Position numbers and translations under genes: made by a program. Below, one piece after another: positions 29,096 through 64,000 of a stretch of 64,000 nt of DNA. The notes beneath the pieces were generated by a model, which was not told the DNA's origin, ran no database searches, and worked only from the letters and a program-made list of their open reading frames with translations. This stretch comes from Candidatus Heimdallarchaeum aukensis (GTDB lineage: Archaea > Asgardarchaeota > Heimdallarchaeia > Heimdallarchaeales > Heimdallarchaeaceae): the NCBI GenBank assembly GCA_021513695.1, contig CP084166.1, positions 2,464,001 to 2,528,000 on the forward strand, written 5' to 3'. Every line of letters starts with the position of its first letter. Position 1 is the first letter of the stretch.

Positions 29096-29101
29096 ATATC
29101 T

Positions 29102-31888: not shown

Positions 31889-31892
31889 AATT

Positions 31893-32993
31893 ATGAAAAT
31901 ACTATTAAGAAAAAAAATATCTATAGAATCGTATTGTGTGCAAATGAGCGTTTTTGTTAGCGAAGAACGACCAGAAATAATCCCACTATTAAAAGGAGTG
32001 GAAGAAGCTGAGAAAAAAAGTGTTGAAACTGCAACTTATTTTGAAGAAAAACTTTTTCCCGGATTTTCTATGAAATTTGTTGAAAATATACTGGAAGAGT
32101 TACGTCTACTAGGATTAGTTGATAATGGACATAAATTAACACAGAAAGGAATAGAAACAATAGAAGAAGAAGATGTTACTGTACCAGATGAAGGAACTTT
32201 TGAAATACACGTTGTTAATGATGTTCTAATACCACAAGTTATTATTGATATCAAACCCCTTGAACCAAATTTATCAAGTGAACTAGCCATAAAAAGAAAG
32301 CAAGGTAAACAATCAAAATTAGAGTTACCTGAATTAATCTTAAAAACAAAGGGAAGCACATTTAACATTTTTGACGACAAAAGGCGTAAAGTTACAATTC
32401 ACGAAATACAAAAAGTAGGTTTAAAAAATAAAAATAATGAAAAATTAGACGTTGAATTAGCATTTGACGAAAAAAAATGGACACTCAAAGTTACTTTTAA
32501 TAAAGAAAAGTTTGATCTGCACTTACCACAATGGTTTAATCAAACTGATGTTGTTGATAAAGTACTTACGTTATTCTCAGCAAAGGCTGATTTAAAACAA
32601 TGGAGGTTACCGCAAGATCCGACTAAGCTAGAAAAAAAAGAAATTACTAGTTTTAATAAAAATTTCCAAAAAGATAATGTAAAACTTTCTTCATTAGGCA
32701 AATTTAACATAGTTAGACTAATTGGCGTTCCCATTTTTCCGGATAGTCAAAAAAGTGCAGAAAAATGGTCAAAGAAATTATTTATTGAAAAAAAACTTTC
32801 TAATTATATGACAACAAAAGATTTTGAGACTGAATGGCGACAAATGATCAAAGAATATAGTGGAAAGTTTGATAAGTTTGACCTACCACCTCCAAAAATT
32901 ATGGATTTGTTAGATGAGATAACTTATGCTTCACAAAAATATTGGTTTCTGCAAGCACCATTAGATATGAATATTGAGGAGTTTGTCATATGA
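31893..32993 (+). CDS. hypothetical protein (366 aa), possible N-terminal winged-helix; operonic between the helicase and the PLD nuclease
   Basis: The start is 4 nt after the helicase stop, and the stop overlaps the PLD start (ATGA). ILEELRLLGLVDNGHKLTQKG is wH-like. Confidence 0.45.
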   Translation: MKILLRKKISIESYCVQMSVFVSEERPEIIPLLKGVEEAEKKSVETATYFEEKLFPGFSMKFVENILEELRLLGLVDNGHKLTQKGIETIEEEDVTVPDEGTFEIHVVNDVLIPQVIIDIKPLEPNLSSELAIKRKQGKQSKLELPELILKTKGSTFNIFDDKRRKVTIHEIQKVGLKNKNNEKLDVELAFDEKKWTLKVTFNKEKFDLHLPQWFNQTDVVDKVLTLFSAKADLKQWRLPQDPTKLEKKEITSFNKNFQKDNVKLSSLGKFNIVRLIGVPIFPDSQKSAEKWSKKLFIEKKLSNYMTTKDFETEWRQMIKEYSGKFDKFDLPPPKIMDLLDEITYASQKYWFLQAPLDMNIEEFVI

Positions 32994-34522: not shown

Positions 34523-34568
34523 AACTGCAACTCAATAGATTTATAAATTGTAAAATGGAGCTAAAAAA

Positions 34569-35108
34569 GTGTCATACGATTTACTATATATTTCATTAAT
34601 GGGCTCATCAGAAAAAGCTGTAGCAAATTCAATATATGCTTCTTTAAAGAATTTAGTTAAAACTGATAAGAAAAATTGGGTTCTGGTGTTTGCAAAATCT
34701 AAATCAACACCAATAAATGGAGAAAGAATTGTTGAAATATTAGATGAGTATAAAAACACTTATACTAAAGCTAAATGGTACAACGCTCCTGTTGATTTTG
34801 ATGAGTTTGAAATTGAAGAATCCAACCTTCTTAAATCAATGGAACAGATAATAAATTATGTGGAAGAAACAGAAAAGAACTACTCTGACATCTTTATAGA
34901 TATAACACCAGGTAGAAAAGTAATGTCTGTTGCAGCCACTCTAGCCGCAATAAATCTCTGTAAATCATCAGAGTTCAATGATATCAAAATAATATACTAT
35001 TTGTTGAAAAATGTTGATGAACATAAAGATAAAGACGCACCTGAACTATATCCTGATGAGTACAAAGTGTCGAGTTGGTCTGTTAAAGATATAAGTAAAA
35101 GAATTTAG
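34569..35108 (+). CDS. standalone CARF-domain protein (179 aa)
   Basis: Core IFIDITPGRKVMSVAATLAAI is parallel to the Csa3-like HINITGGTKIMSSAGVIAG (the D/N-I-T-x-G-x-K signature). The N-terminal beta strand is LLYISLMGSS. There is no fused effector. Confidence 0.5.
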   Translation: MSYDLLYISLMGSSEKAVANSIYASLKNLVKTDKKNWVLVFAKSKSTPINGERIVEILDEYKNTYTKAKWYNAPVDFDEFEIEESNLLKSMEQIINYVEETEKNYSDIFIDITPGRKVMSVAATLAAINLCKSSEFNDIKIIYYLLKNVDEHKDKDAPELYPDEYKVSSWSVKDISKRI

Positions 35109-35118
35109 AGGAAAAAGA

Positions 35119-36219
35119 ATGTCTGAAAAGCCAGTAATTTTGGAGTTTAGTGAGTTTTTTGAGAGTTATTTGTCAGAAAAACCTTTCATTATTCGAGGTT
35201 GGGATGAAGATGAGAATCAAGAATTTAGAATTGAATATAATGAAGGTATTACAACATTTGATAAAAATTTAAAACCCTTAGATATAAAGAATTATCTCTT
35301 TAATATTGGTATCTTCCCTTCTGATGAAAAATGGTGGAGAGAAAAAGCATTTAAAAAATTGGAAAAACGATATAATGAAGCAATTGAAGAAGAAGAGGTT
35401 CCTGCTCTGGGTTTAGATACAAATATAATAATAAATGGCGTTTTTATCAACAGGTTAAGAGGATTATTAAAAAGGAAACTTAAATGGGAAAATCCTCTCC
35501 TTCTACTGTCTCTTGCTTCATCTCACGAGCTTCACTATGGAGCAGAATCAAAATATAATGACTCGTTTTATAACAAATCAAAATTGGACAATATATGGGA
35601 ATTTATTTTATCACTAGATTCTCAAACACAGGAACTAGCTAAGACTGTTTTTGGCACCTATAAACCTATAGAAAACAAAAACATTTTGAGTTCTTTACAT
35701 TGTAAAAGAGGAAGAATAGGGCTTATAGGTTCATATAACTATTATAAACATAAGAAACTACCAAATACTCTCATCATAAAATCGATTCATCCTTATAATG
35801 TTGCAAAGTTTGATTCAGATGGGCATAAATATAAAGGAATTGATGCAATTTACGACACTTTAATTGCTTATGAGTTCACTCAGTTTATGACCTTTACAAA
35901 TACAAAAGTAACGATTTTAACAATGGATAATTCTTTAGCAAGTTTATTACAAAATGCATCAGTGGATGTAGTTTATATACCACCTCCAAGTAAATTTCAA
36001 TTACCAAAAGAAATAATTATCCCTCAAAGAAATTGTTCTATCCTTCTGAGAGAACTATTAGTAAGATCTCCTTTTATCGTTATTGAGGATGAAAATAAAA
36101 AAATAGTATTATCAATGATTTGGATAGGACAAACAGATGAAGAAAAAGCAAAAGGAGTAATTCATGGAGTAGTGAAAGAAAAAAATAAAACTAGATATTT
36201 ATTAATAAAGAGCCAATAA
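35119..36219 (+). CDS. hypothetical protein with a possible PIN-like nuclease core
   Basis: ALGLDTNIIING is a PIN first-strand h-h-D-T-N-h-h motif. SSHELHY gives the downstream acidic residue and ILTMDNSLASLL the last (T-x-D). The spacing is longer than in a canonical PIN domain. Confidence 0.35.
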   Translation: MSEKPVILEFSEFFESYLSEKPFIIRGWDEDENQEFRIEYNEGITTFDKNLKPLDIKNYLFNIGIFPSDEKWWREKAFKKLEKRYNEAIEEEEVPALGLDTNIIINGVFINRLRGLLKRKLKWENPLLLLSLASSHELHYGAESKYNDSFYNKSKLDNIWEFILSLDSQTQELAKTVFGTYKPIENKNILSSLHCKRGRIGLIGSYNYYKHKKLPNTLIIKSIHPYNVAKFDSDGHKYKGIDAIYDTLIAYEFTQFMTFTNTKVTILTMDNSLASLLQNASVDVVYIPPPSKFQLPKEIIIPQRNCSILLRELLVRSPFIVIEDENKKIVLSMIWIGQTDEEKAKGVIHGVVKEKNKTRYLLIKSQ

Positions 36220-38346: not shown

Positions 38347-39109
38347 GGTAGTGTCTAGTTTTTTTCCGACAAAAATATTTGTGGGGACTCTAATAGTAAG
38401 ATATGAAAACACAAAAACTATCTGCTCTTTTTAAGAGATGCAGAGTCCCCAAAAAAATAATAATAAAAGCTATTTATGAATATATTGGTTCAAAGAATGG
38501 TTTGAGGACAGTAGCATGGAAGAATGGTTTAACGCATCAAACATTATTGTATTGGGTAAAGAAGTTCAGGCTCTTTAGGGAAAGTTTACATAGAGTTGTA
38601 GCAGAGAGAGGGGGAATACCAGAGATTATAGTAGTAGATGAAACAGAGATTAGGACCTCTCAAGGCTCAATATATCTGTGGTTCGCGTTAGATCCTTACA
38701 ACAAGACTTTACTGGGTTTTAGTATTACTAAAGGACGGAGTAATCTTGAATGTTTACTAACTTTCCGTTATTGGCTCAAATGTTGGGGTTTTAAGCCTCG
38801 TATTGTCGTTACAGATGCAGGGGTATGGTATCCTGTCTTACTTCGTCTAGGTATCAAAATCTCCGTTATCAAAGGTGGTTTACGCTCCTATATTGAACGT
38901 TTTAATGCTACTCTTAAGAGTTATCGTTGGTTTCATTCTATTCTCCACTGCACTTGTCCTATCCGTGCCGTCTATGGCTCTACTCATCTTTCTGGTTTTC
39001 TTACTCTCTTTATGCTCCATTATAATTTCGTTCGTCCTCATCAGAGCTTGGGACATCCTCCCCTTAGTTCCTTTTTACCTAGGAGGTGGTATAAAAACTA
39101 GACACTACC
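38347..39109 (+). mobile_element. IS6-family insertion sequence (763 bp), copy 1, with 17-bp terminal inverted repeats and a 9-bp direct repeat
   Basis: Inverted repeats GGTAGTGTCTAGTTTTT at 38347 and AAAAACTAGACACTACC ending at 39109. It is flanked on both sides by ATATAAAGC, which looks like a target-site duplication. Confidence 0.85.
38403..39101 (+). CDS. IS6-family DDE transposase (232 aa)
   Basis: DDE triad in IIVVDETEI, RIVVTDAGVWYP and YIERFNATLK. Overall similarity to IS26-type transposases. Confidence 0.85.
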   Translation: MKTQKLSALFKRCRVPKKIIIKAIYEYIGSKNGLRTVAWKNGLTHQTLLYWVKKFRLFRESLHRVVAERGGIPEIIVVDETEIRTSQGSIYLWFALDPYNKTLLGFSITKGRSNLECLLTFRYWLKCWGFKPRIVVTDAGVWYPVLLRLGIKISVIKGGLRSYIERFNATLKSYRWFHSILHCTCPIRAVYGSTHLSGFLTLFMLHYNFVRPHQSLGHPPLSSFLPRRWYKN

Positions 39110-46610: not shown

Positions 46611-47372
46611 GGTAGTGTCTAGTTTTTATACCACCTCCTAGGCAAAAAGGAACTAAGGGGAGGATGTCCCAAGCTCTGATGAGGACGAACGAAATTATAA
46701 TAGAGCATAAAGAGTGTAAGGAAACCAGAAAGATGGGTAGAGCCATAGACGGCACGGATAGAACATGTGCAGTGGAGAATAGAATGAAACCAACGATAGC
46801 TCTTAAGGGTAGCATTAAAACGTTCAATATAGGAGCGTAAACCACCTTTGATAACGGAGATTTTAATACCGAGACGACGTAATACAGGATACCATACCCC
46901 TGCATCTGTAACGACAATACGAGGCTTAGAACCCCAACATTTGAACCAATAACGAAAAGTTAGTAAACATTCAAGATTACTCCGTCCTTTAGTAATACTA
47001 AAACCCAGTAAAGTCTTGTTGTAAGGATCTAACGCGAACCACATGTACATTGAGCCTTGAGAGGTCTTAATCTCTGTTTCATCAACTACTATAATCTCTG
47101 GTATTCCCCCTCTCTCTGCTACAACTCTATGTAAACTTTCCCTAAAGAGCCTGAATTTCTTTACCCAATACCATAGTGCCTGGTGTGTTAAACCATTCTT
47201 CCATGCTACTGTCCTCAAACCATTCTTTGAACCGATATATTCATAAATAGCTCTTATGATTATTTTCTTGGGGATTCTGCTCCCTTTAAAAAGGGAGTAT
47301 ATTCTTAGTTTGTTCATATTTTCACATTAGAATCCCCAATAATATTTTTGTCGGGAGAAACTAGACACCACC
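46611..47372 (-). mobile_element. IS6-family insertion sequence (762 bp), copy 2, inverted relative to copy 1, with its own 10-bp flanking direct repeat
   Basis: Ends are GGTAGTGTCTAGTTTTTATACCACC at 46611 and CTAGACACCACC ending at 47372. It is flanked on both sides by ATAGAAAACC. Confidence 0.85.
46619..47317 (-). CDS. IS6-family DDE transposase (232 aa), about 90% identical to the 38403..39101 product
   Basis: Same DDE blocks as the 38403..39101 product (VVDETEI, VVTDAGVWYP, YIERFNATLK). Confidence 0.85.
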   Translation of the reverse strand: MNKLRIYSLFKGSRIPKKIIIRAIYEYIGSKNGLRTVAWKNGLTHQALWYWVKKFRLFRESLHRVVAERGGIPEIIVVDETEIKTSQGSMYMWFALDPYNKTLLGFSITKGRSNLECLLTFRYWFKCWGSKPRIVVTDAGVWYPVLRRLGIKISVIKGGLRSYIERFNATLKSYRWFHSILHCTCSIRAVYGSTHLSGFLTLFMLYYNFVRPHQSLGHPPLSSFLPRRWYKN

Positions 47373-49928: not shown

Positions 49929-51053
49929 TCAATGTAGTAATTTTCTCATTTTTGAATTAATCAAATCTCTGGCAATATCTGGTGCAATATCTCGTATCTC
50001 ATAAATTAGTTGGGTAAAGACTTTGGATGAAAATGATTTTGTTACTCTTGTAAGTTCGTCTACAAAAACTAAAGGATAAGGATATCCAACAACAGGTGAA
50101 ATCCGACATAAGTCATTAAATAATTCAAATAGTGAGTCCAATTTGGATAAATCCCATTTTGGAAATTCTAGATATAGTGCATGAGATGAATTAGGATACA
50201 AATAATAGGTACTACAAACACCTTCTCTTTTTAAGATTGAAATTGGGATTTCACCATGGGTGATACCAGCGACTGAAACATCTAAAGGTTCAAAATAAGC
50301 TGGTTTATCAGGCGAATATTTTCGTATTATATGTTGTAAAGCTATTCTTTCTCTCCAAGATTCATTTTCAATTAAATTTCGAAGAATTTCTAACTTTTCT
50401 TTATTAATATTTAATTTATCCATTACTTCCTTATCACACTTTAAAGCTCTTAGATATTTAGCTCTTCTCGCATCTTTTGATACTGCAATTACACTCACTT
50501 TACTCTTTTTTAAAGCTAAATTAAAAAAATCATTAGCATTTTTTTGATACTTTAGGAAAGCATCTGACAATTCTCTTATGTTAGTAACATTTACAGAAGT
50601 ATCAGGAAATGTGATAGCTCCATCAAGTAAAACAAGAGTTGGAATATCATCATCTATTTCATTAATTGCTTTTTTTGCAACATAATATTCTAAAGACTTC
50701 ATGAAAGTGGATGAAACTATTGAAGCTATATCTGAAGCTGGAGTATCAAAAAGTTGAATATCATTAAAATCAGTAATTTTTGCCTTTCCAAGTGTAATCA
50801 TAAAGGCTCGAGCAGAAGCAACAGCAAATCCCACTCCTTCTAAAGATGTATGATCCATCCCCCCATCAACGGCTATAACTCTCCAATTTTCATCTGAAAA
50901 TGATTTATATTTTGGAATATTTATGATAAGATCTTTTAAAATTTTGAAGTTATTGGCCTGTCTTCTAACTTTTGCAACAAGTTTTGGTACTTCTATTCTT
51001 CTATATCTATCAATTTCTTTCATAATAAGATTGAAATTATCCATTATCTTCAC
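49929..51053 (-). CDS. NurA-like nuclease domain protein
   Basis: WRVIAVDGGMDHTS matches the NurA first motif h-A-h-D-G-S/G. TLVLLDGAITFPD, and VIAVSKDARRAKY matches the NurA GhSKDS motif. Its stop is 10 nt before the HerA start. Confidence 0.55.
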   Translation of the reverse strand: MKIMDNFNLIMKEIDRYRRIEVPKLVAKVRRQANNFKILKDLIINIPKYKSFSDENWRVIAVDGGMDHTSLEGVGFAVASARAFMITLGKAKITDFNDIQLFDTPASDIASIVSSTFMKSLEYYVAKKAINEIDDDIPTLVLLDGAITFPDTSVNVTNIRELSDAFLKYQKNANDFFNLALKKSKVSVIAVSKDARRAKYLRALKCDKEVMDKLNINKEKLEILRNLIENESWRERIALQHIIRKYSPDKPAYFEPLDVSVAGITHGEIPISILKREGVCSTYYLYPNSSHALYLEFPKWDLSKLDSLFELFNDLCRISPVVGYPYPLVFVDELTRVTKSFSSKVFTQLIYEIRDIAPDIARDLINSKMRKLLH

Positions 51054-51783
51054 ATTCTTTTAGCTTGTTATCTAATTCTGGCCATTTCAGCCTTAGTTGA
51101 TGTAATCTGTCATTAAAATCTGTAGCACATCCAATTTTTTCGTCTTTAATCTCTAAAATGCCTTTTTCAATAAAAATTTCCATCCATTCTGATATTTCAT
51201 CAATCTCAGCTAATCTGTAAAAATCGCTTAGGGATATTGATTCTCCGAAACTCATCAAAAAGGTTAATGAACGTTGAATTCCATCCCATACTCTTTTAGA
51301 GAATTTTGGAAATGCAGCTTCAGATACTGTGATATTTTTGAATATCTCTTTAAATATGTTTTTTATCAGTTCTGTTTCAAGTTTTCTGTGATACTCTGTA
51401 AAGTATGGCAAACAATAGATAAAGTTGTCTCGAATGATAGCAATAATGTGTTTTTGGAATTTAATTGTTTTGTCTTTAGCTTCTATTCCAACGTTTCCAA
51501 CTTTCAAGATTTCTCTCTGATTTTCAAATTTGATTGAATCTAAAGTAACCTCACAACTTTTTATCGTTTTACAAAAATGTTCAATATCTATTTTAGAAAG
51601 AGCGATTATTATTCCTATGCGGTTACTAGTTATTTCTTTTTTATAGTCTTCAATTAATGAGTAAGTAATTAAGATACAATTTGATTGTTTAATATCATCT
51701 GTTCTTGAAAATTCAGTGTCTTCTAAAATAAATTTTAGAGGATTATATATTTGAGGAGGAATGAACATCTTCATACTTAACAC
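51037..51783 (-). CDS. hypothetical protein (248 aa), operonic between the large NTPase and the NurA-like gene
   Basis: Overlaps the NurA-like start by 17 nt and abuts the NTPase stop. Confidence 0.45.
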   Translation of the reverse strand: MLSMKMFIPPQIYNPLKFILEDTEFSRTDDIKQSNCILITYSLIEDYKKEITSNRIGIIIALSKIDIEHFCKTIKSCEVTLDSIKFENQREILKVGNVGIEAKDKTIKFQKHIIAIIRDNFIYCLPYFTEYHRKLETELIKNIFKEIFKNITVSEAAFPKFSKRVWDGIQRSLTFLMSFGESISLSDFYRLAEIDEISEWMEIFIEKGILEIKDEKIGCATDFNDRLHQLRLKWPELDNKLKECEDNG

Positions 51784-54700: not shown

Positions 54701-55458
54701 GTTCCTTCACTAAATGGATAATAAGGGTTTTTTAAATTAATTAAATTCCTTAAATCTTGATTTGCGTAAAAGTAAATGTAGCGACGAACTAATCCAGCCA
54801 TCTTCCAATCTTCAGGCTCTGGAATTATTATTTTGAATCCAATTAATCTATTATCACTTATATCCGGGTGGTAACTTAAGACATAATTCCAAGATGGAAC
54901 ACCAAAACCTAAAACTAGCATAATATTTTTGAAATCACTAAACCTATCATTTCTTTCTAAAAATCTCCTAAAATCTTTAAAGAATCGATCCGCATCGTTT
55001 CTTGATATCTGATTATTTGAAATCATTCTAGGAATATCATCTATTTCATCGATAAAAATAATAACTCGTTTTGAGGTATTTTCATCTTTTAAATTTCTAG
55101 ATAATTGTTTTTTTAAAAAAGAGTATAAATTTAGTGTGTCTCTACTAAATTGAGTGAAAATTGATATTATACCTATACTTTTAGTATATCTAGCAAGATA
55201 TTTCATAAGTTCAGATTTTCCTGAACCATATTCACCAATTACTGCTAAAGCAATATTGTCCCTATAATTAGTTGATTCTTCTAGTTTTCCGATAGCTCGT
55301 ATTAAAGCATTTCTTACCCCTACTGGAGGTGGAACATCTTCGTCCAATCCTTTAGTAACCCCCATTGGATTAAAAGGATTACTTGTAAAACCAACCTTTT
55401 TGAATAAATTCATTTCGTTACTCATATTTAAAATCCTCCTTAATTTCAGTAATCCCAT
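51784..55458 (-). CDS. large (1224 aa) P-loop NTPase: N-terminal AAA_16/STAND-like NTPase domain followed by about 900 aa of alpha-helical, coiled-coil-rich sequence
   Basis: Walker A IALAVIGEYGSGKSELMKYL and Walker B RVIIFIDEIDDI 60 aa later. The C-terminal half is rich in heptad-like K/E/L/I runs, for example LENELSEIEKNAKDIEEI...LESLRILLKQISAECNK. Confidence 0.75.
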   Translation of the reverse strand: MGLLKLRRILNMSNEMNLFKKVGFTSNPFNPMGVTKGLDEDVPPPVGVRNALIRAIGKLEESTNYRDNIALAVIGEYGSGKSELMKYLARYTKSIGIISIFTQFSRDTLNLYSFLKKQLSRNLKDENTSKRVIIFIDEIDDIPRMISNNQISRNDADRFFKDFRRFLERNDRFSDFKNIMLVLGFGVPSWNYVLSYHPDISDNRLIGFKIIIPEPEDWKMAGLVRRYIYFYANQDLRNLINLKNPYYPFSEGTALALAKLSALVHEYTYVNTRMLIKLMDRLVVYLAKKTLERKEEIIIQFTLEHFEEIIKKPEILGLNNENFENALRKINSSLIEVARKFAKEININEETIYKLLFRIYFDHSAISDAELKNYIDQNLVEFFKNRLIDSGLVDDLLIINYEDNIENYEEIVKDIEYSEKDSQYRNIRLIKKYATYIDNDLVKNNYDPTTVPVSEYNTYIAVKKKNLKTLNEELRELFENKAKSYILISEQRWKNEIKEKQIRGIEISGERKALQQFDNESSRKISVKFSKNLKEILKMHYISVLGTKDKNINDLVCAIDSPKNAIMLAKPSIEKDIKDILKTYLKLCVKSSELFEAITFLVPEETDEIIKHEKLSQELTGIVDLKPRDSPLIKVYGIPKKDLIHILYPKETHQEKNHDDIKNNFITWLTNTQKEIRTEFDKMDRIPLDNRIFQKRDFNDLLDTYYELWEEIVSEEPNNQKINELKTKLERFGSLFKFNKVQKLSLIERDIIELFSVFAHSIDPELARIRLRRRYALSCSILEEIEILRLLTVKGILIDQAPKAKKKFKFDFYNPKLDRTYLNEVTKQYLNLVEKFTELETIRVDFSENTHTINLEIETLQELKNLENELSEIEKNAKDIEEIVPKNFIDITGELLVEIYNERSKLHEKLRDFSEVVEAYEEDYSKVTSELESLRILLKQISAECNKHSKKSDPKINNIVQKIISVLNSIKKINEINKAIVKIENIKKELNKHIEAKSQISSLYSKLEKQTEIINKYLSTLKNLKLVDIKKWDYVFENSTEISSIIDKIGEREFRELENDVLKAELPEDPFFANKYLDWFARICAEIETFYKDIQTILLRNVQKILNQISNFFNWIKERNIDLILSNQDVKSINEIPSLLNKVDSKREISFNVIDDLYNLKQVTDKFLEEHFTKYKDIAFEIGKEGPKRAIELEKLYEKFGKNKVDNCIEDLINRKLIIKTIST

Positions 55459-56176
55459 AAGTGCCAGGTATGATGTTCTCGACTCCTACACCAAATTTAA
55501 ATTGAATCTGAAGATCATCTTTCAGTGTTTTTAATAGATTAAAAGCAGTTTCTAACGTCATTACTTTATTTGATTCTAGCACCTTCTGGGTAAAGCACTC
55601 TATGATGTCATATGTTCTCAATTGCTTTATTTTGGCTTCTTTTGAGATAATTCCTATACATTTTTTAAACAAACTAACATATGTTCTTGTTGTCATCTTG
55701 CTTTCATAATAAATTCCTTCTGATTCCTTTTTTAGTAATGAGCTCATTATTGCTAATGCTGTTAAAGTGTTAAATGTAGGTTCAGGAAGATTCCAACCAT
55801 AACTGAACTGTTTCTCCTTGATTAAATTAAAAAGGGATTTTTTACTTTCAAAAAATTTATCACTACTTTCATCTAAAAAATCAGTTAAAACTCTATATTG
55901 AGGTATCTGACTCATTAAAATGTTATGAAGCAAATCTGAAAACTTATCTTTTTCATTACGAAATTCAAACAATTTTTGACCATTTTGTGTGAATTTTAGA
56001 TATTTATTTTTCTCTTCTTCAATAATTCCAAGCTGTTTCATGAGTCTTCTAACATCATTACCTGATGTATCAAATTGTTTAAACTGTTCTACTGGAATTT
56101 TCCCTTTATATAGACCTATGGCTGTTAAACACCTCATAAATGAACCTTCAGTAACTTGAGGTAATGATTTAATCAT
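55418..56176 (-). CDS. hypothetical protein (252 aa), first gene of the five-gene operon
   Basis: Overlaps the NTPase start by 41 nt. Its start is 84 bp downstream of the IS insertion. Confidence 0.45.
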   Translation of the reverse strand: MIKSLPQVTEGSFMRCLTAIGLYKGKIPVEQFKQFDTSGNDVRRLMKQLGIIEEEKNKYLKFTQNGQKLFEFRNEKDKFSDLLHNILMSQIPQYRVLTDFLDESSDKFFESKKSLFNLIKEKQFSYGWNLPEPTFNTLTALAIMSSLLKKESEGIYYESKMTTRTYVSLFKKCIGIISKEAKIKQLRTYDIIECFTQKVLESNKVMTLETAFNLLKTLKDDLQIQFKFGVGVENIIPGTYGITEIKEDFKYE

Positions 56177-56259
56177 CGAGTGTTTATTTAATTTTTATTA
56201 TATTTATTTTATGGAAAAAGTATGTTTTTTTTAAAAAAATATTATCTCTTTTAAGAAAA

Positions 56260-57268
56260 AAGCATGTCCAAAAATTCTTTTTCACCAACTATACAGTCCG
56301 AAGGAGTAAACGGTAGTTATAACAGAGGAGAGAACTGTACAAGGTAGAAAGGATGGTAGAGGGTAAGCGATCAAGTATCGGGGGAAGAGAGAGTTTGAGG
56401 AGACCAAAGACATGTTCAATACTACTACGATACTCGGGGTGGTGATTATGACGATAGAGACCAGGGTAGAGACGATGAGCTTGAACTATTGGTCCAAGAG
56501 GAGGAGGAGAGGGATAACGAGCATTACTTTTTGGGGGAATAACAGGAAAAAAGGAATGTTGGCTAAGAAGACCGACGATATTTTCTGTCCAGTAGGCACA
56601 GTCTCCATAGAATCGCAAGAAAGGTCTCAAGAGTGCAGAAGGAAGTTTCTGCCATAACAAACCGAAGACTTTACTATCGTGAGTGTTACTAGCAGAATGA
56701 GTAAGAGAGACTATAGCTCGAGAGGGTAAACCAACTATAAGGTGTATCTTCCAGAAAAGTTTAGTTTGGAGGTTTTCTTTAGTCCTCCTCTTGCCCACTT
56801 GAGAAAACGCCAAACAGAAGCTTGACGGATTTTAAACCCTGAACTATCCACCGCCATAGCTTTCAACCCTTTTTTCCTCACTATTTTCCTACCTAAATCT
56901 ATTATCCACCGCTCCAGCAACTCACTTTCTGTCGCTCTCCACACTGCATGAAAAGTAGATTTGGAAGGAATCTTCTTCATCCACCCCTCTTCTATCAAAA
57001 AAGCGCATAAAGACAACTTTTCCTCTAACTTCCTCCAAGCAATTCCTTCTATTCTAGCAATGATCGCTAAAGCCAGTATCACCCATCTTTCTGCTATTCT
57101 CTTTCTCCCTCTCTTGCTTTCTCTCGGTTCCTCTTTCACCAGTTTCTTAAGGAAAGGTTCATTAATGATTATGAATTCTCTTGCTTTGTGGGGGTCTATG
57201 ATCTGAAAGAAATTCATACTTCCGACATAAACCCCCACATTAATAAAAATTAATTTTTGGACATGCTT
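56260..57268 (-). mobile_element. IS element of about 1009 bp (IS5/IS4 superfamily), copy 2, with orfA/orfB arranged for a -1 frameshift and flanked by an 8-bp direct repeat TAAGAAAA
   Basis: Same terminal inverted repeats as the copy at 19707..20714 (AAGCATGTCCAAAAATT). TAAGAAAA sits immediately on both sides, at 56252-56259 and 57269-57276. Confidence 0.85.
56289..57238 (-). CDS. IS5/IS4-superfamily DDE transposase encoded as orfA (56735..57238) and orfB (56289..56813) with a 79-nt overlap in the -1 frame
   Basis: orfA has MAVDSSGFKIR (first D). orfB has FYGDCAYWTENIVG (second D) and SSIEHVFGLLK (E). The overlap contains cta aag aaa acc. Confidence 0.75.
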
Positions 57269-57282
57269 TAAGAAAATTTAAA

Positions 57283-58515
57283 TTAGTTTATTTTGTTTAT
57301 ATCTTCATTTTCTAAATAGTAATCTTGAATTATGTCAGAAAGATTGTAATTTTTAAAATATCCATTATTTAACTCTATTATGAATGGAATATATTTTCTT
57401 AATGGAGAGGTCTTTAAATACGTTTTTAACTGTTCTAACTTATCGCTAGTAAAGGGTAACATATTTTTTATTCGTTCAAATTCGTTTAAATAAACGTAAG
57501 CATTATGTAAAGCTCTTAAGTTAAAGCTTTTATCTAAATTCTCTCTTGTATGAGGATTCACTCCGCATTCGCATTTTAAAAATTCTTCTTCATGTTCTTC
57601 TTCGAGAACTTTTCTTGATTTATTTTTTCTAGGAAATAGAAATCTATCTGACAGTCCTGGTAATTGTATCGCGCCATGAGCAGCTTTTAATCTCCATCCA
57701 ACAGAATCAACAGAATCAGCTCCCGCTCCATAAATGAGATTCATTGTTGTAGTTCCTCCAATGCCAAATACATGAAGTTTACTTTTAGGAAACAATTTTT
57801 TGACTAATGCCGTTGCAGCAAAAACGAACATTGGGGCATTTAACCTTTTATCTTTTGAATGTGTTGGAATATTCTTTGAACCTTTGCTATATTTTAATAA
57901 TGGAACCATTGAACCTAATCCTATCCACTTTGGATACGAATTAGTATAATCTTTGTAAATCTCTAGGATTTTTTTAGAATAATTAATAATTTTTCTAAAT
58001 GAATGACCGTGAACGACAGGTATTAACGTTGTATCCAGATTTGCTTGTAACATCTTTTCTAAATTATCTAGTGTTTTTTTTTGCCTGTAATAGTTTTTGG
58101 AATATGTGGCTGTAGGATCTAAAGGATGATCTAAAACTACTGCATAATCCGGTGATGCCTTATTATACAATTTTATTAGATCTTCAACTTTAATTGAGAT
58201 ACCTTGTTTTTTTTGAAAAATAAAACCTCCACTATCCATCATAACATTAGAATTAATTTCTAAAAAATTTTTTAATCCTTTTTTCTCAATTTTTTCTCTA
58301 ATTTTTGGCTTGAAAATAATTTCTGCTCCATTTACTAAAATTCCTACATTTTTTGAAGTAAACTTGGCTATACTTTTGACTTTAGGTTGTGGATTTATAG
58401 GTGTTCCAAACCAAAAAAAAAGGTCATTTTTACCAGAGTTATTATCGAATATGTCACTTACTATCTGTTGCTCAGTTTTTTCATCATCAGAAGAAATTTT
58501 ACATGTAGTAATCAT
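57283..58515 (-). CDS. tRNA-guanine transglycosylase (TGT) superfamily protein of 410 aa without a PUA domain; possibly a DpdA-like DNA 7-deazaguanine transglycosylase
   Basis: - NVMMDSGGFIF is the TGT LxxDSGGFQ motif with the catalytic Asp.
- VVLDHPLD.
- HVFGIGG is the hhMGVG block.
- The zinc site is CECGVNPH...LRALHNAY (CxCxxC...H). Confidence 0.7.
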   Translation of the reverse strand: MITTCKISSDDEKTEQQIVSDIFDNNSGKNDLFFWFGTPINPQPKVKSIAKFTSKNVGILVNGAEIIFKPKIREKIEKKGLKNFLEINSNVMMDSGGFIFQKKQGISIKVEDLIKLYNKASPDYAVVLDHPLDPTATYSKNYYRQKKTLDNLEKMLQANLDTTLIPVVHGHSFRKIINYSKKILEIYKDYTNSYPKWIGLGSMVPLLKYSKGSKNIPTHSKDKRLNAPMFVFAATALVKKLFPKSKLHVFGIGGTTTMNLIYGAGADSVDSVGWRLKAAHGAIQLPGLSDRFLFPRKNKSRKVLEEEHEEEFLKCECGVNPHTRENLDKSFNLRALHNAYVYLNEFERIKNMLPFTSDKLEQLKTYLKTSPLRKYIPFIIELNNGYFKNYNLSDIIQDYYLENEDINKIN

Positions 58516-59122
58516 TTATGACCCAACAAGTTAGTTGTTAATTGGTAATATAATAAATCTTACTTAGATACTTTCATTCATACAATAATAAATATTTTTA
58601 TCTATAATAGTACTTCCGCAATAAGTTGACTGATTTCTATAGGTTAAAATTATAGGAGTTCATACTATCATTGGCGTGTTCTCAATTCATACTTTTTGAG
58701 ATAATTCGGAAGTACTACTATAAATCAAAAACGTTTTGTTTTTATTTTTTCTTCTATAGGTGAATTTGCTAAAATTGTTAGTTTTTTCACAGTAGAATTG
58801 GGTTACGCTTTTGTATGATTGAAGCATAAGGCTGATTCTTAATTTTTTTATATTCTATAAGCGTAAGTCAAAGCTTTTGAGTTATTATTTATTAATGAAT
58901 TATAAATTATACTGCATAAATAACCAGTACTTGCTGTAACAATACAAGCAATATGTTAATAAATAACAAAATCATAAATTCAAAAAAATAAAGTAGATTT
59001 AAAAACCTGTATAATAAATAAACTTAAGGAATAGAATTTAGATTAGGTTATTTTATAATAGGTATTTAATAATCATCAAATATTAACAAAACGTTTAAGT
59101 ATCGTTATTATTCCCTTTCTTT

Positions 59123-61267
59123 ATGGTTCAACCGAAGAAGCTTTATAGTTTTTTAGATTCAGAATTAAAAACTTATCAGTTTCCAGAATTTCAAAGACCA
59201 TATGTATGGGGCCAAAATGAGATATATGATTTAATTGATACAGTAGTAAGGGGATATTCTGTTGGATTGATACTACTTTGGGAAGGAGATAGTAATGCTC
59301 TGAATTATTCTCTTCGAGATTGGGTATCTCCTCCAAGCAATAGTGATCGTTTAAGACTAAAGTACATTCTAGATGGACAACAAAGAATAAAAACACTTTC
59401 AAGAACCTTCGGAATTGATTTTTTAGTCAATAATGGTTTTATGTCAGAAGTAAAAACTGATTCAATTCCAAGAGCACTCTCCAAATACCCATATTTTATT
59501 TTTCCATCTCGATCAAATTTCTTAAATGTTACAAAAAACAAAAAAAATCGCTGGGTTAGTTTCGATATTTTCTTAGATTTAGCTAAAGTTGACTTAAGTA
59601 AAGAAAAATGGTATGAACGCATATCTCCTGATTGCTGGGTTTCTTTATTGGATATTATGAGGATGAATTGGAAGAAGGAAGAAATAGCAGAATTTAGCAT
59701 ATTAACTGAGAAAAAAGGTCCACTTAATAATTTAGAATTTTTTATTGTTGAGTATAAAAATGGTAAAATTGAAAGAGATAACCCAAACAACAAGTGGTAC
59801 AAAAAACAAGAGGATGGTGTTCAAGATACAAACTTAGTAAAACCAATTAGATTCATTTACATTAACTCATTAGAAAATATAGAAGATATAATTAAATATT
59901 TTAGATTATATTACCAGTTAAACGGAAGTATTCAAATTTCTCAAGATAAAAATTTTCTACATTTAGAACTTAGGCGAGAATTGATTTCACTACTAAAAAT
60001 AAAGCCAACAGATATAGATTTATTATTTCAAGAAACAGAATCAGCAGAACTTACACAGTTAACGCATTACTTTTCTAGGTTAAATAGAGCTGGTGTGTTA
60101 CTGGATGTAGTTGATTTGCTTATAGCAAAAATTTATGGTGAGAGAAATGAGCCGTTTCCTTTGCGCAATATCTTACAGAACACCTTTAGCGATGATACTC
60201 TTCGAAATTTTTTTAATCTAAAAGATGATGATGACCCAAGTACAAAATTTAAACTATTATTACAAGTAGTTTCTCTTTACTTTTATAACAAACTATCTGA
60301 TGATGCAATATTAAAAATAACGCAGCAAAATTTGTTAGATTTTGAGTTTGAGAAATTCTCGATGACATCTATTCCAATAAATAAGAAAGTATTAATACGT
60401 GAATCATGGAGAAAAACAATAGAATTTTTGAGAGAGAAACTTGCTATAAATTCTATTTCTAAATTAAGGTATGACCGGTTGTTTGTTATATTAATGGCAC
60501 TTAATTATCATGTTTATAAAGAAGAAATACTAAACAAAAGCTATAGAGACTTATTTGAGAATGAGTTTGATGAGATTCTCAAAGTTTGGATACTAAGGGA
60601 ATCTATATCGTTCAATCTAGCAACTGGAAGTAATAAACCTCCTGAAAGATATAAAACATTTATAAATAAGAGTATACCTTCTATAATACGATGCATTGAA
60701 AATGAAGAAGAAATAAGTAGAAAAGAAATATTAGATGAAATATTCGTTCCCACTTTGTCAGATGAAAACTTATCAGATAAGGAGTTTGGAAAAGCTCTAA
60801 TGAGTATTTTGTTGAAAGAAAATGGGATTTACGATTTCTACGATAAAACATTGTCAAAAAAGATCACAACTTGTTCTCAAGTTATTGAAGATACAATAGA
60901 GCTACATCATATTTTTCCAAAAAATATGGTTAATGATGCCAATTTAAAGAGGGTATTTGATATAGGATTAAACTTGACACCTTTAAAGAAAAAGACTAAT
61001 AGTGATAAACTTGGTAATAAACACCCATTTAAATATATTCAAGAAATGATGGGGGAGATTCAAGATGAAGCTATATTCAACGAAATAATGAACTCTCATT
61101 GGTTGCCAGAATTAGAATGGTGGCGTGATATTATGCAAAAATACGATTATCCAGATAATGAAGATGCAATAAAAAATGTTGAGAAAATAAAAGAGCAATT
61201 TGATTTATTTATTGAAAAAAGAAAAGAAATTGTTTTAGATAAAATCAAACCCCTCTTATACTTATAG
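59123..61267 (+). CDS. DUF262 (ParB-like) plus DUF1524 (His-Me finger) protein; GmrSD-family type IV restriction endonuclease-like
   Basis: N-terminal YQFPEFQRPYVWGQNEIYDLIDTVVRGYSVGLILLW is the DUF262 (I/V)PxFQRxYxW signature. C-terminal IELHHIFPKNM...NLTPLKKKTN is DUF1524/HNH-like. Confidence 0.7.
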   Translation: MVQPKKLYSFLDSELKTYQFPEFQRPYVWGQNEIYDLIDTVVRGYSVGLILLWEGDSNALNYSLRDWVSPPSNSDRLRLKYILDGQQRIKTLSRTFGIDFLVNNGFMSEVKTDSIPRALSKYPYFIFPSRSNFLNVTKNKKNRWVSFDIFLDLAKVDLSKEKWYERISPDCWVSLLDIMRMNWKKEEIAEFSILTEKKGPLNNLEFFIVEYKNGKIERDNPNNKWYKKQEDGVQDTNLVKPIRFIYINSLENIEDIIKYFRLYYQLNGSIQISQDKNFLHLELRRELISLLKIKPTDIDLLFQETESAELTQLTHYFSRLNRAGVLLDVVDLLIAKIYGERNEPFPLRNILQNTFSDDTLRNFFNLKDDDDPSTKFKLLLQVVSLYFYNKLSDDAILKITQQNLLDFEFEKFSMTSIPINKKVLIRESWRKTIEFLREKLAINSISKLRYDRLFVILMALNYHVYKEEILNKSYRDLFENEFDEILKVWILRESISFNLATGSNKPPERYKTFINKSIPSIIRCIENEEEISRKEILDEIFVPTLSDENLSDKEFGKALMSILLKENGIYDFYDKTLSKKITTCSQVIEDTIELHHIFPKNMVNDANLKRVFDIGLNLTPLKKKTNSDKLGNKHPFKYIQEMMGEIQDEAIFNEIMNSHWLPELEWWRDIMQKYDYPDNEDAIKNVEKIKEQFDLFIEKRKEIVLDKIKPLLYL

Positions 61268-61699: not shown

Positions 61700-62275
61700 C
61701 TATGCAAAAACGCTGTTAGGCTGTTTTTTATGTTGTTCGTATACACTTGGTAGAGTCTTTAATAGCCATTGATATAATTTCAGGAATTCTTTTGCCTCTG
61801 TTTCAATATATTCTATTATTTCATCATATTTTTTATCTTTATATAAATCAAGTATATCCTCTCCTGTTTTCTTTTTTTTGGTAAAAGTATCTAATCTAGC
61901 ACCTTTAAATGATCCTTTATTTAGTATAAATAAGGTAGAACTAATATCTACGTGGGGATGAGTTAATAATTTCTCTAATTCAATATTTAGACCATATTTT
62001 TTAGCTCTTTTAGACAATACGATAAAATCATATTTTAAATTGGAACCAACAGGTGTAAAATTCCATTTATCTTTTATGTTTAATTTTCTAAGAAATTTTT
62101 TTATTATTTCTTCTTCAGAATTTTCCCAACTTTTAAGAATAGTTAAAGGCTCTCCACTTAATTTTTTTCCTGTTTGCTGCAATATTTTTTGGTATTGTAT
62201 AGTGATAATTTCATAATTGTAAGAATCTTCTTCTTTTTTACCATATGTTTCAATATCAAAATAATATGTTGTCAT
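61700..62275 (-). CDS. DnaQ-like (DEDD, RNase-H-fold) 3'-5' exonuclease domain protein
   Basis: YYFDIETYG is Exo I D-x-E. GSNLKYDFIVL is Exo II. YKDKKYDEIIEY is an Exo III Y-x3-D candidate. Confidence 0.5.
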   Translation of the reverse strand: MTTYYFDIETYGKKEEDSYNYEIITIQYQKILQQTGKKLSGEPLTILKSWENSEEEIIKKFLRKLNIKDKWNFTPVGSNLKYDFIVLSKRAKKYGLNIELEKLLTHPHVDISSTLFILNKGSFKGARLDTFTKKKKTGEDILDLYKDKKYDEIIEYIETEAKEFLKLYQWLLKTLPSVYEQHKKQPNSVFA

Positions 62276-62499: not shown

Positions 62500-64000
62500 T
62501 CATTCTTCACAAGGCCCACCTACTATTTTTGAGTATGGGCAAGTTCTACATCTACTATACTCATCATCCTTATTTGGGTTTTTCACAAAGCCTTGTTCCA
62601 CATCAATTTTTATTCTGTTTTTAATAGCATCTTCAACTTGAGATTTGAAAGATTCAAGGTTATGATTTATTTTTACAACTTTGAATTGGGGATGTACAAA
62701 AACAATCAATGTTCCAATATCTTTGATATTTGGATAATTTTGTTTTAAAAGCCAAGCATATGTTGTTAGTTGATTCTCATACATTGTGTAGAGATCGCTG
62801 CTTTCATTTGGTGGATTTCCAGTTTTATAGTCAATGATTATCCATTTTTCTTCTTCAATTTTAAATAAAAGATCTATAGTTCCTGTTATTATAACGGGTT
62901 TATAATCATCGTAGGAAAATTTTGCTTGTAACTGATATTCTGTGAAAAAATCGGATGTTCTCTTATTGAAAAGATTTGAAATTGTTTTGTCTTTTAGATA
63001 AGAATTTATTATTTGTATAAGATGTTGTTTCGCATTATCAACTTGAATTTTACTAAGAATATTTAAAATAAGTTCAGAATCTATTTTTTCTTCTGAATTT
63101 ATTGCTTTATGAAATGATTCCATGAACAAATGGACTATATCTCCCCATTCTGCTGCTGAATTGATCCCCTTTGGAGGTGTTGTTCCTGGGGGTAAATGTT
63201 CCTCTCCAAATTTGCCAGATAAATAATAATTATCCACTTTATTTAAAACTGCATAGGCATATCTTCGGGGACAGAAAAGTAGATTGTAAAGTTCTTTTGC
63301 TGCAATAGATATGGGTACAAATTGTATATTTGCTAGTGTATTTAGTTTTTTAATTTTACTTCTTTTAACTTCTTTCTCATAATCTTTTTCTCTAAAAGAT
63401 AGAGGTTGATCTTCTTTAGGTGATGGCTTAATGATCTCTATTTTAATCTCTTCAACAATTTCTTTTTCTTCTAAACTATCGATAACTAGATTCTGTTCAT
63501 TCCAATTTAATGTTACATAAAAACAATCTCCTTCTGGGTTAAAATCTCTATTATTTAAAACTCCAAGTTTGTTTTGAATAGTATACATCCACCTAGTATA
63601 TTTATTTCCCTTAGGTTCTATAAGACCAAGATGAAAAATAAGATGATCTCTTGCTCTTGTAGTCGCAACATAAAAAAGGCGCCAAAATTCAGCAATATCT
63701 TTTTTGATAAATTGATTTAAAGGGTTGTTAAACTTAAAAACACCATTGTCTTCTCTTTTGTTACTAACCCAAAAGATTCCAGACGATAGATTACCAGGTA
63801 TTAATCTCTCTCCTGGGCCATTAATATCTTCTACTGTTTCTACATTAATATCAATTGGTTTAATAGCCACACCAATCTCTCTATCTAAAAATATTCTTTC
63901 CCTATAAGGGTCTCTTAATACATCTTTCACAAGCAGATCTGGAATAATTACTATTGGGAATTCAAGTCCTTTGCTTCTATGTATTGTCATTATTTTTACG
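62500..64000 (-). CDS. C-terminal part of a UvrD/PcrA-like SF1 helicase fused to a Cas4/AddB-type PD-(D/E)xK nuclease domain; the 5' end lies beyond the window
   Basis: - VKIMTIHRSKGLEFPIVII is helicase motif V/VI region, and LFYVATTRARDHLIF is motif VI.
- The nuclease domain has Cys in CPRRYAY plus a C-terminal CRTCPYSKIVGGPCEE cluster.
- The frame is still open at position 64000. Confidence 0.7.
   Translation of the reverse strand, partial: VKIMTIHRSKGLEFPIVIIPDLLVKDVLRDPYRERIFLDREIGVAIKPIDINVETVEDINGPGERLIPGNLSSGIFWVSNKREDNGVFKFNNPLNQFIKKDIAEFWRLFYVATTRARDHLIFHLGLIEPKGNKYTRWMYTIQNKLGVLNNRDFNPEGDCFYVTLNWNEQNLVIDSLEEKEIVEEIKIEIIKPSPKEDQPLSFREKDYEKEVKRSKIKKLNTLANIQFVPISIAAKELYNLLFCPRRYAYAVLNKVDNYYLSGKFGEEHLPPGTTPPKGINSAAEWGDIVHLFMESFHKAINSEEKIDSELILNILSKIQVDNAKQHLIQIINSYLKDKTISNLFNKRTSDFFTEYQLQAKFSYDDYKPVIITGTIDLLFKIEEEKWIIIDYKTGNPPNESSDLYTMYENQLTTYAWLLKQNYPNIKDIGTLIVFVHPQFKVVKINHNLESFKSQVEDAIKNRIKIDVEQGFVKNPNKDDEYSRCRTCPYSKIVGGPCEE

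Follow-up and report, generated by a model that had tools for sequence, protein, structure and literature searches.

The TGT locus

We analyzed a 64-kb stretch of DNA, called the window throughout, which by an exact sequence match belongs to the closed metagenome-assembled genome (MAG) of Candidatus Heimdallarchaeum aukensis. Our subject is a gene of the tRNA-guanine transglycosylase (TGT) superfamily and the genes around it (Table 1). Divergent from the TGT-like gene lies a gene for a GmrSD/SspE-like protein; on its own strand it is followed by an insertion sequence (IS) and then by five genes, for a protein that we call SmA, a giant P-loop ATPase that we call Big, a second small protein, SmB, a NurA-family nuclease and a HerA-family translocase. 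NCBI lists the TGT-like product as a 'hypothetical protein', and the genome paper of Ca. H. aukensis mentions neither TGT nor HerA nor NurA. From ~27 kb onward the window is a dense defence island with viperin, Mokosh-like helicase, PLD, PbeA-like helicase, NERD, HNH, HEPN and UvrD/PD-(D/E)XK genes, and a preliminary description of this DNA, made from the sequence alone, was right to place the TGT-like gene in such an island.

Table 1. Features of the TGT locus in window coordinates.
Feature	Position	Strand	Basis and remarks
HerA-family hexameric translocase/ATPase, 533 aa, UJG40401.1	48318..49919	-	Pfam DUF87 6e-36, HerA_C, HAS-barrel; PADLOC HerA 4e-56
NurA-family nuclease, 374 aa	49929..51053	-	Pfam NurA 1.5e-11
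SmB, 248 aa, Heimdall-type operon only	51037..51783	-	orthologues in L001-L003
Giant P-loop ATPase Big, 1224 aa	51784..55458	-	N-terminal AAA+/STAND-type, BrxC/D-like; winged helices; C-terminal coiled coil
SmA, 252 aa, Heimdall-type operon only, invariant GWNLPEPTFN motif	55418..56176	-	orthologues in L001-L003, same operon position
Target-site duplication, left copy TAAGAAAA, 8 bp	56252..56259	.	IS boundary
IS5-family element, 1009 bp, parting the TGT gene from the remaining operon	56260..57268	-	terminal inverted repeats, DDE_Tnp_1
Target-site duplication, right copy TAAGAAAA, 8 bp	57269..57276	.	IS boundary
TGT-superfamily gene, DpdA-like, catalytic domain only, 410 aa, UJG40408.1	57283..58515	-	first gene of the system
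TGT-GmrSD spacer, 607 bp, 23% G+C	58516..59122	.	coordinates, composition
GmrSD/SspE-like DUF262 protein, 714 aa, UJG40409.1	59123..61267	+	Pfam GmrSD_N 1.1e-20

The TGT-like protein has a complete active site

The 410-aa protein matches the Pfam TGT family with E = 3e-15 and carries the motif DSGGF at residues 94-98, as the preliminary description had stated. That description had also found the PUA and C-terminal domains of the archaeal enzyme arcTGT to be absent, and this agrees with our alignment to P. horikoshii arcTGT, which covers only the catalytic part, starting at residue 40 and ending at residues 323-345 of 582. The C1, C2 and PUA (C3) domains are missing from the 410-aa protein, and a Pfam scan of it returned no PUA match. 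The zinc site, described earlier as CxCxxC...H, has to be amended. The region reads C315-E-C317-G-V-N320-P-H322 ... H337, with Asn at the third Cys position. This third Cys is present in 96% of the family, and the zinc site as a whole is conserved to 96-100%; in the Heimdall subclade a nearby His may act as the substitute ligand.

The full transglycosylase set is present and invariant throughout the family, with D94 as the general acid/base, D270 as the nucleophile, D129, F98 and H169. The same positions correspond to the active site of the bacterial DNA-modifying enzyme DpdA, which consists of Asp95, Phe99, Asp130, His181 and Asp256 (PMC10164549), and the family matches this set with D94, F98, D129, H169 and D270. 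The His is informative in that H169 aligns with a Gln of arcTGT and bacterial TGT, while DpdA also has His there. DpdA further has an essential, exposed aromatic residue, Phe265, shortly after the nucleophile (PMC10164549); the family has an invariant aromatic, W274, shortly after its own nucleophile and inside a clade-specific insertion. This insertion, W-R-x-K-A-A-x-G-A-I-Q-L-P-G, follows directly on the nucleophile Asp; the form shared with a homologue from the Sulfolobus virus STSV2 (see below) is WRxKAxxGxxxLPG.

A homology search gave 163 relatives of 340-410 aa. The family profile aligns with arcTGT (1iq8) across the whole catalytic domain at E = 9e-36 and 126.7 bits, and scores ~42 bits with bacterial TGT, 39.8 bits with Salmonella DpdA and 21.5 bits with Cap10, a TGT-fold protein of type IV CBASS. 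Against the NCBIfam arcTGT model TIGR00432, the window protein reaches 72 bits where the equivalog cut-off is 350. The family is also rare: among 1.84 billion cluster representatives there are 423 matches at E <= 1e-3 and 66 at E <= 1e-30, and 185,579 species genomes (one genome per species) hold 35 loci. These comparisons show a rare, catalytic-domain-only offshoot of arcTGT in which the transglycosylase active site is intact. The DpdA-type His, the low arcTGT score, the rarity and the defence context together support a DpdA-like accessory enzyme rather than a housekeeping arcTGT. The preliminary description had proposed the former and kept the latter, a housekeeping tRNA TGT, as its alternative, which we reject on the score, the rarity and the defence-gene context. 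Both catalytic Asp residues are present here; to our knowledge, the N-terminal domains of ArcS lack both.

NurA, HerA and a giant ATPase are the conserved partners

We compared the gene neighborhoods of the relatives, with loci numbered from L001. The closest full-length relative with readable context is found in a Heimdallarchaeaceae MAG (L001, TGT 57% identical), where TGT, SmA (246 aa), Big (1214 aa), SmB (239 aa), NurA and HerA follow one another on one strand without interruption. In L003, a 42%-identical TGT stands at the opposite end of the same five downstream genes, and in L004-L007 three HEAT-repeat genes are followed by TGT, NurA, HerA and a 1400-aa Big gene. The 35 loci were annotated with hidden Markov models (HMMs) built from the operons just described, and over all loci examined the set of NurA, HerA, Big and TGT is present in L008, L009, L014, L017, L018, L019, L021, L023, L026, L027, L029, L030, L056 and L057. 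The commonest order is NurA-HerA-Big-DUF5591-TGT; DUF5591 was not detected in L023, and order and orientation vary (L008, L018, L019). The hosts are Thermococcus argininiproducens (L008), Bathyarchaeia, Methanodesulfokora, Archaeoglobales, Nitrosopumilus, Thermoplasmata, Thermoproteota, another Asgard archaeon and one Crocinitomicaceae bacterium.

In total, NurA, HerA and a P-loop ATPase of 1200-1560 aa adjoin the TGT-like gene in 18 independent lineages out of ~31 with informative flanks, and in a distance tree these 18 fall in two clades that include the TGT of the window. NurA, HerA and the giant ATPase are thus the conserved partners of the TGT-like protein, and we have little doubt that the window's TGT-like gene is a member of this operon. 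The relatives show TGT-SmA-Big-SmB-NurA-HerA to be a conserved operon of genes that share one orientation and in part overlap. In the window, the 3' end of SmA overlaps the start of Big by 41 nt and all genes from SmA to HerA overlap or abut, which fits translational coupling.

HerA has a conserved Walker A motif, T180-G-x-G-K-S185, and D63, E122 and D144 of NurA are conserved in 17 orthologues. Big gives weak Pfam matches to AAA, AAA_22 and BrxC_BrxD (E 0.003), scattered winged-helix matches and coiled-coil matches in its C-terminal third; G78xGK81 and D137E138 are invariant across 16 orthologues, eight of which (8/16) match nSTAND5 and AAA_22. The Big family HMM also finds, at 1.8e-10, a Haloarcula BrxC/D-type ATPase that adjoins a more distant TGT on a plasmid. 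SmA and SmB have no match in Pfam, PADLOC or NCBIfam. For SmB, whose single-sequence structure model is poor (pLDDT 41.6), a C-terminal winged helix can be proposed with low confidence. We also considered whether SmA and SmB could be hidden homologues of DUF5591, DUF6884 or QueC, or split-off pieces of Big, and rejected this, as the hhalign probabilities are all <1%.

Other combinations occur at the edges of the family. Two more loci have the TGT-like gene beside Mre11/SbcD-like and Rad50/SbcC-like genes rather than NurA. On plasmid6 of Aulosira laxa (L051, 2757-9975), TGT is accompanied by Mre11/Rad50-like genes and a HerA-like gene, and L055 (5706-11143) has Mre11/Rad50-like genes, two DUF5591 genes and a 981-aa phosphodiesterase-family protein, possibly PglZ-like. 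On the Haloarcula sinaiiensis plasmid pHsi139 (L052, 1-11827), a TGT of ~26% identity lies in a gene cluster that also encodes QueD and QueE, an EVE-domain protein, a nuclease of the PD-(D/E)XK type, a BrxC/D-type ATPase and a 969-aa DUF6884-containing protein, an assembly that looks like a plasmid-borne, haloarchaeal Dpd-like cluster. In L010/L011 (1898-12312, with a TGT that NCBI names Pyrinomonadaceae), TGT, a DUF6884 gene and a QueC-like gene are preceded by four caspase-like (Peptidase_C14) genes and two Y4kD_C genes, a context that hints at use of the module on protein rather than DNA.

Viral relatives and nitrile-modifying enzymes

A search of 50,697 phage and virus genomes found family members only in the Sulfolobus viruses STSV1, STSV2 and STSV4. 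The STSV2 protein, STSV2_15, is 30% identical to the window protein and scores 97.8 bits with the family HMM; at 291 aa it has lost the zinc cysteines and shares the insertion (DSVDTSTYRVKAIHGMVLLPG). An HMM built on the cellular DUF5591 proteins matches the adjoining STSV2_16, a viral ArcS. These two viral proteins have been named DpdA and ArcS, the latter consisting of the C1 catalytic core only, and dCDG has been found in STSV2 DNA (Cui et al., PMC10516641). Expressed in E. coli, DpdA2 of phage nt-1 is sufficient by itself to yield dPreQ0 in plasmid DNA, and together with the DUF5591-only ArcS of nt-1 it yields dG+ (PMC10516641). The nt-1 enzyme was tried as a family member and rejected, since it gives no HMM match. 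The HMM score and the common insertion place the TGT-like protein and STSV2 DpdA in one clade.

An ArcS-core (DUF5591) gene lies beside at least 13 of the related cellular TGTs, and most relatives are paired in this way; the ArcS motif PC-x3-KPY-x2-S is found in these cellular DUF5591 proteins. DUF6884 flanks other members of the family, and QueC-like genes flank some (L009, L027, L028); the Pfam authors tie DUF6884 to YaaA/PF03883, the DpdC family. Because DUF5591 or DUF6884 flanks these TGTs in the way that DpdC accompanies DpdA and ArcS accompanies the viral DpdA, the recurring module can be described as a base-exchange enzyme plus a nitrile-modifying enzyme. The operon of the window has only the base-exchange half of it.

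In IMG/VR, a single contig holds a family TGT (L054, 2659-8945), together with two PAPS-reductase-like genes. Several open reading frames (ORFs) of ~230-245 aa to which no family could be assigned lie upstream of this TGT, and recognizable preQ0 pathway genes were not found on the contig.

An insertion sequence splits the operon

The element between TGT and SmA belongs to the IS5 family, has 17-bp terminal inverted repeats (AAGCATGTCCAAAAATT) and, at 41% G+C, stands out from the window (30%). Its DDE_Tnp_1 transposase is spread over two overlapping ORFs, 56735-57238 and 56289-56813. A second IS5-family copy at 19707-20714 is inverted, 91% identical and bounded by a target duplication of its own with a different sequence (TTATATAA), so that this is a genuine transposition. 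The repeats, the duplication and the coordinates agree with the preliminary description of an IS5-like copy with an 8-bp duplication that begins 14 bp past the TGT stop codon; the distance to the next gene, SmA, is 83 bp by coordinates and not 84 bp.

If the element and one copy of the duplication are excised in silico, the spacer between TGT and SmA shrinks to 89 bp, compared with 120 bp in the intact L001. The data support the view that the IS split a once-contiguous TGT-HerA/NurA operon. Contiguity before the insertion, as proposed in the preliminary description, is borne out by the uninterrupted one-strand operon of L001. A further relative, L002, is 99.4-99.9% identical to L001 at the DNA level and has a different IS of ~1 kb in the same spacer, of rve type and with a 16-bp duplication, CATCACGAATATTTTC (L002:2135-3138 compared with L001:5212-5333). 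Because this element differs from that of the window, two unrelated elements have struck the TGT-SmA junction in two lineages. The double hit may be a matter of chance in an AT-rich spacer, or it may reflect selection for uncoupling the presumed modification and restriction halves.

The second IS5-like copy lies amid three fragments of one SBP_bac_5 solute-binding gene (19113-19676, 24854-25417 and 25517-26128) distributed over both strands, and the scatter of these fragments suggests IS-associated disruption and rearrangement.

The GmrSD-like neighbor

The divergently transcribed neighbor has DGQQR at residues 84-88, and the PADLOC models PDC-M55C, HEC-05 and SspE match its N-terminus only; no DpdB model matches. 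An earlier reading of it as a DUF262/DUF1524 protein across an AT-rich spacer of ~600 bp holds for DUF262, for the divergence and for the spacer (607 bp). The DUF1524 half gave no Pfam match at E <= 0.5, and what can be seen in the translation is a motif, ELHHIFP...NLTPL...N, that resembles a DUF1524 nuclease. The spacer presumably holds both promoters. Within it, at window positions 58580-58745, lies an imperfect inverted repeat of 44 nt, whose 11-bp core (TAGTACTTCCG) is perfect and whose arms are 78 nt apart; the core has no further mismatch-free occurrence in the window.

In none of the 46 loci L001-L046 did we find a homologue of the GmrSD-like protein, or an ORF with the DGQQR motif, within ~10 kb of TGT. 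The only other locus with a nearby DUF262 gene is L057, where a 435-aa protein with GmrSD_N and HNH domains is encoded 1.4 kb from TGT; its similarity to the window's protein is limited to the motif region, and its architecture is different. Given that no GmrSD-like neighbor is conserved near TGT, the gene is best read as an independent resident of the island. As a conserved partner of TGT it is rejected on its absence from all 46 loci, the L057 gene being unrelated, and the pairing of modification and restriction that the preliminary description thought plausible between TGT and GmrSD is not supported, the conserved partners being NurA, HerA and Big.

Other genes of the defence island

A co-oriented cluster at window 28217-36219 consists of viperin (pVip, E 1.5e-85), an MkoA-like SF1 helicase (928 aa), a 366-aa protein of unknown family, a PLD nuclease (510 aa), a CARF-like 179-aa protein and a second 366-aa unknown, and a further CARF/HFX_2341-wHTH regulator lies at 27463-28110. 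Two inverted rve-type IS copies, 93% identical (38347-39109 and 46611-47372), enclose genes for a PbeA-like helicase, a protein of 273 aa and NERD and HNH proteins, in a layout that resembles a composite transposon. Upstream of TGT and on the same strand are a 191-aa ORF without family match (61700-62275) and, at the end of the window, a UvrD_C/PD-(D/E)XK (Cas4-like) gene (62500-64000). UvrD/PD-(D/E)XK genes also lie near TGT in L001/L002 and L004; they were considered as orthologues of that of the window, and orthology was not detectable. Rfam and tRNA scans of the window gave no match.

A possible Dpd-like system with a HerA-NurA restriction arm

We favor, at a little better than an even chance, a Dpd-like restriction-modification system of the six genes TGT-SmA-Big-SmB-NurA-HerA, with TGT as the modification arm and HerA-NurA as the restriction arm. 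The TGT-like enzyme would replace guanine with a 7-deazaguanine base in double-stranded DNA of the cell itself; preQ0 from the archaeosine pathway is the most likely candidate. The nitrile would then be converted, in most relatives, by a neighboring ArcS-core (DUF5591) or DpdC-like (DUF6884) protein, giving archaeosine-type or amide products. The Heimdall-type operon has neither of these genes, so that its mark would stay as inserted. Big, a BrxC/D-like protein, would read the modification state of DNA together with SmA and SmB, and unmarked invading DNA would be passed on to the HerA translocase and the NurA nuclease for processive degradation. The IS stands between the modification gene and the restriction genes and may have reduced or re-wired expression of the latter, and the GmrSD-like gene would be a separate defence gene that is a neighbor by chance. 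More tentatively, and at somewhat less than an even chance, we extend this to the family as a whole, which spans from Asgard archaea to Thermococcus and Nitrosopumilus, plus a few bacteria: an archaeal defence system in which a DpdA-like TGT and, as a rule, an ArcS-core enzyme place preQ0- or archaeosine-type bases in the host's own chromosome, and HerA-NurA, steered by Big, destroys unmarked DNA.

Several observations weigh against this interpretation. In sequence, the tRNA-acting arcTGT (126.7 bits) is a closer relative of the TGT-like protein than DpdA is (39.8 bits), and the curated DpdA models failed to recognize it (NCBIfam NF041059 at 29.2 bits with a threshold of 200, PADLOC at 31 bits and partially). 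It has neither the large helical Ins8 of DpdA nor a DpdB partner, and its third zinc ligand is substituted. The DUF5591, DUF6884 and QueC partners are not found in the window's operon, and DUF5591 is not found in L001-L003 either; nor does the 64-kb window contain a queC, queD, queE, folE or canonical arcTGT gene. The bacterial sister clade sits with QueC-like genes and caspase-like peptidases, a context reminiscent of Cap9/Cap10, a pair that acts in protein conjugation. The genes downstream of the IS may have been silenced by it. Finally, that cellular members of the family mark DNA at all is something we infer from sequence and by analogy.

Relation to known systems

The nearest counterpart is the bacterial Dpd system (dpdA-K; S. 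Montevideo). Common to both are a TGT-fold enzyme with the same Asp pair, an Asp130 equivalent and a base-pocket His; a structural zinc site, which is CxCx2Cx22H in DpdA and putative in the window's protein (C315-x-C317-x2-N320-x-H322 ... H337, the third Cys being replaced); in relatives of the window locus, a partner that alters the preQ0 nitrile (DUF6884 as distant DpdC/YaaA kin, DUF5591 as the ArcS core); and a restriction arm of several ATPase and nuclease genes within a defence island. However, the window locus is without DpdB, DUF328 DpdC and the DpdD-K helicases. The PADLOC models of DpdB and DpdC match none of the flanking genes, and besides the DpdA models that match TGT, the only Dpd model with a match is DpdJ, weakly (E 2.3e-5) and to a distant helicase at 29102-31888 that is far better matched as MkoA. 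In place of the Dpd restriction genes, the window has NurA-HerA and a BrxC/D-like giant ATPase, and its TGT, besides scoring 29 bits with a DpdA model that asks for 200, has no 70-residue Ins8 helical bundle and descends from archaeal arcTGT.

The viral pairs of DpdA and ArcS(C1) resemble the cellular genes in the insertion after the nucleophile of STSV2_15 and in the DUF5591-only ArcS, which matches the cellular partners, and they are similar in kind in that the DNA of these viruses carries 7-deazaguanines. They differ in that the viral versions serve anti-restriction rather than defence and come without NurA or HerA, that STSV2_15 is only 291 aa long with its zinc cysteines gone, and that nt-1 DpdA2 shows no detectable relation at the HMM level; conversely, the window operon has no DUF5591.

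BRC (BREX-related capture) is a computational prediction comprising PglZ, DUF6079, STAND, DUF4007, HerA, GNAT and TGT (PMC12839542). Like the window operon, it brings together a HerA-family translocase, an AAA+ ATPase of the large BrxC type and a TGT with a proposed role in marking self DNA, and it is sparsely distributed in archaea and bacteria. Unlike in BRC, where TGT is optional, TGT is universal in the window-type system; PglZ, DUF6079, DUF4007, GNAT and a separate STAND gene were not detected at the window locus, and the window nuclease is NurA, which goes unmentioned in PMC12839542. The archaeal HerA-NurA end-resection complex, in turn, has the same adjacent pair of HerA (DUF87, HAS-barrel) and NurA with conserved catalytic residues, but the window contains no Mre11-Rad50 operon, and its pair is coupled to TGT and a giant ATPase, is patchily distributed and lies in a defence island. 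We found no published account of a TGT-NurA-HerA-giant ATPase system in a search that most subscription journals lay outside, and which is thus not proof of novelty. The gene set, conserved across archaea, is apparently undescribed so far; it would be a form of 7-deazaguanine-based restriction-modification.

Alternative explanations

One alternative takes its cue from Cap10, in which the TGT fold has been put to a new use, the binding of a protein N-terminus modified with NDG (10.1101/2025.04.06.647259). The window TGT would then, as in the deazaguanylation of type IV CBASS, bind or transfer a 7-deazaguanine attached covalently to a partner protein and in this way regulate or tether the HerA-NurA-ATPase machinery, with DNA left unmodified. 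Cap10, too, is a TGT-fold protein recruited to defence with its catalytic Asp retained, and bacterial relatives of the window TGT have QueC-like and DUF6884 genes beside caspase-like peptidases and not DNA effectors; QueC-like genes also occur in L009, L027 and L028. However, Cap10 has lost the zinc subdomain that this family keeps and has a remodelled tRNA-binding face, it is by profile score the most distant relative, and it is accompanied by Cap9 (QueC-like) and a CD-NTase, neither of which is present in the window or the operon. A QueC-like gene was likewise not found in Heimdall-type operons, no protein of the window operon begins with the Gly-rich motif M(G/S)G(G/S)GG, and the homologue STSV2_15 belongs to a virus whose DNA is modified. 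We regard this explanation as unlikely.

It is also improbable, in our estimation, that the TGT-like protein acts as a sensor or glycosylase, recognizing a 7-deazaguanine (or guanine) in invading DNA and removing the base, with the covalent or abasic intermediate serving as the entry point for HerA-NurA. Defence would then depend on modification of the invader, in place of self-marking. The biosynthetic partners found in most relatives (DUF5591, DUF6884, sometimes QueC) suit the writing of a mark rather than its reading, and the viral members of the clade are writers. What speaks for such a role is that in the TGT reaction the enzyme, once the base has been removed, is covalently joined to the nucleic acid as an intermediate (PMC10164549), that archaeal viruses and phages do bear 7-deazaguanines in their DNA (PMC6884629, PMC10516641), that the Heimdall-type operon has no base-maturing partner, and that the family recurs next to end-processing machines, both NurA-HerA and Mre11/Rad50-like.

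We give very little weight to a functional pair of TGT and its GmrSD-like neighbor, in which TGT would write the mark and the neighbor would be either a modification-dependent nuclease or a DpdB-like helper ATPase. The two are direct neighbors, oriented divergently on either side of 607 bp, and DpdB, which bacterial DpdA needs, is a ParB/DUF262-type DGQQR ATPase related to SspE (PMC10164549). The GmrSD-like protein does have DGQQR, and L057 offers a second DUF262-HNH gene near TGT. Against this stand the empty neighborhoods of L001-L046, the different architecture of the L057 protein, which has the motif region only in common, and the unmatched PADLOC DpdB models; the window protein has retained ELHHIFP, an EHxxP-like nuclease motif that is missing from DpdB, and a nuclease cutting modified DNA would attack the self-modified chromosome.

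Scarcely credible, finally, is a housekeeping gene acting on tRNA, whether as a tRNA-guanine(15) transglycosylase, given that arcTGT is among the best sequence and fold matches, or as the TGT-like half of a split ArcS of the kind that occurs with a separate C1 (DUF5591) domain in some archaea (PMC10516641), because the C1-C3/PUA tRNA-binding domains are absent, the arcTGT score is 72 bits where 350 are required, the gene is patchy and rare (35 loci in 185,579 species genomes) where a housekeeping arcTGT would be near-universal in archaea, its operons in defence islands consistently include NurA, HerA and the giant ATPase, and both catalytic Asp residues are kept.

Significance

Marks of 7-deazaguanine in DNA are known from bacterial Dpd, from phages and from archaeal viruses, and for archaeal cells no counterpart that has a defined restriction arm has been characterized so far. 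The window locus and ~18 related lineages suggest a compact and testable system with one cultured host, Thermococcus argininiproducens, and link the archaeosine pathway, the DpdA/ArcS module that is shared with viruses and the HerA-NurA end-resection machine. If our interpretation of a Dpd-like system with a HerA-NurA restriction arm is true, modification-based immunity would have a new type of restriction effector, in which a nuclease pair of homologous recombination has been recruited as a restriction enzyme, and Asgard archaea would have provided a new lineage of DNA-base-exchange enzymes. Bases of the archaeosine family would then serve archaea as a chromosomal self-label, and host and virus would deploy the same modification enzymes on opposite sides.

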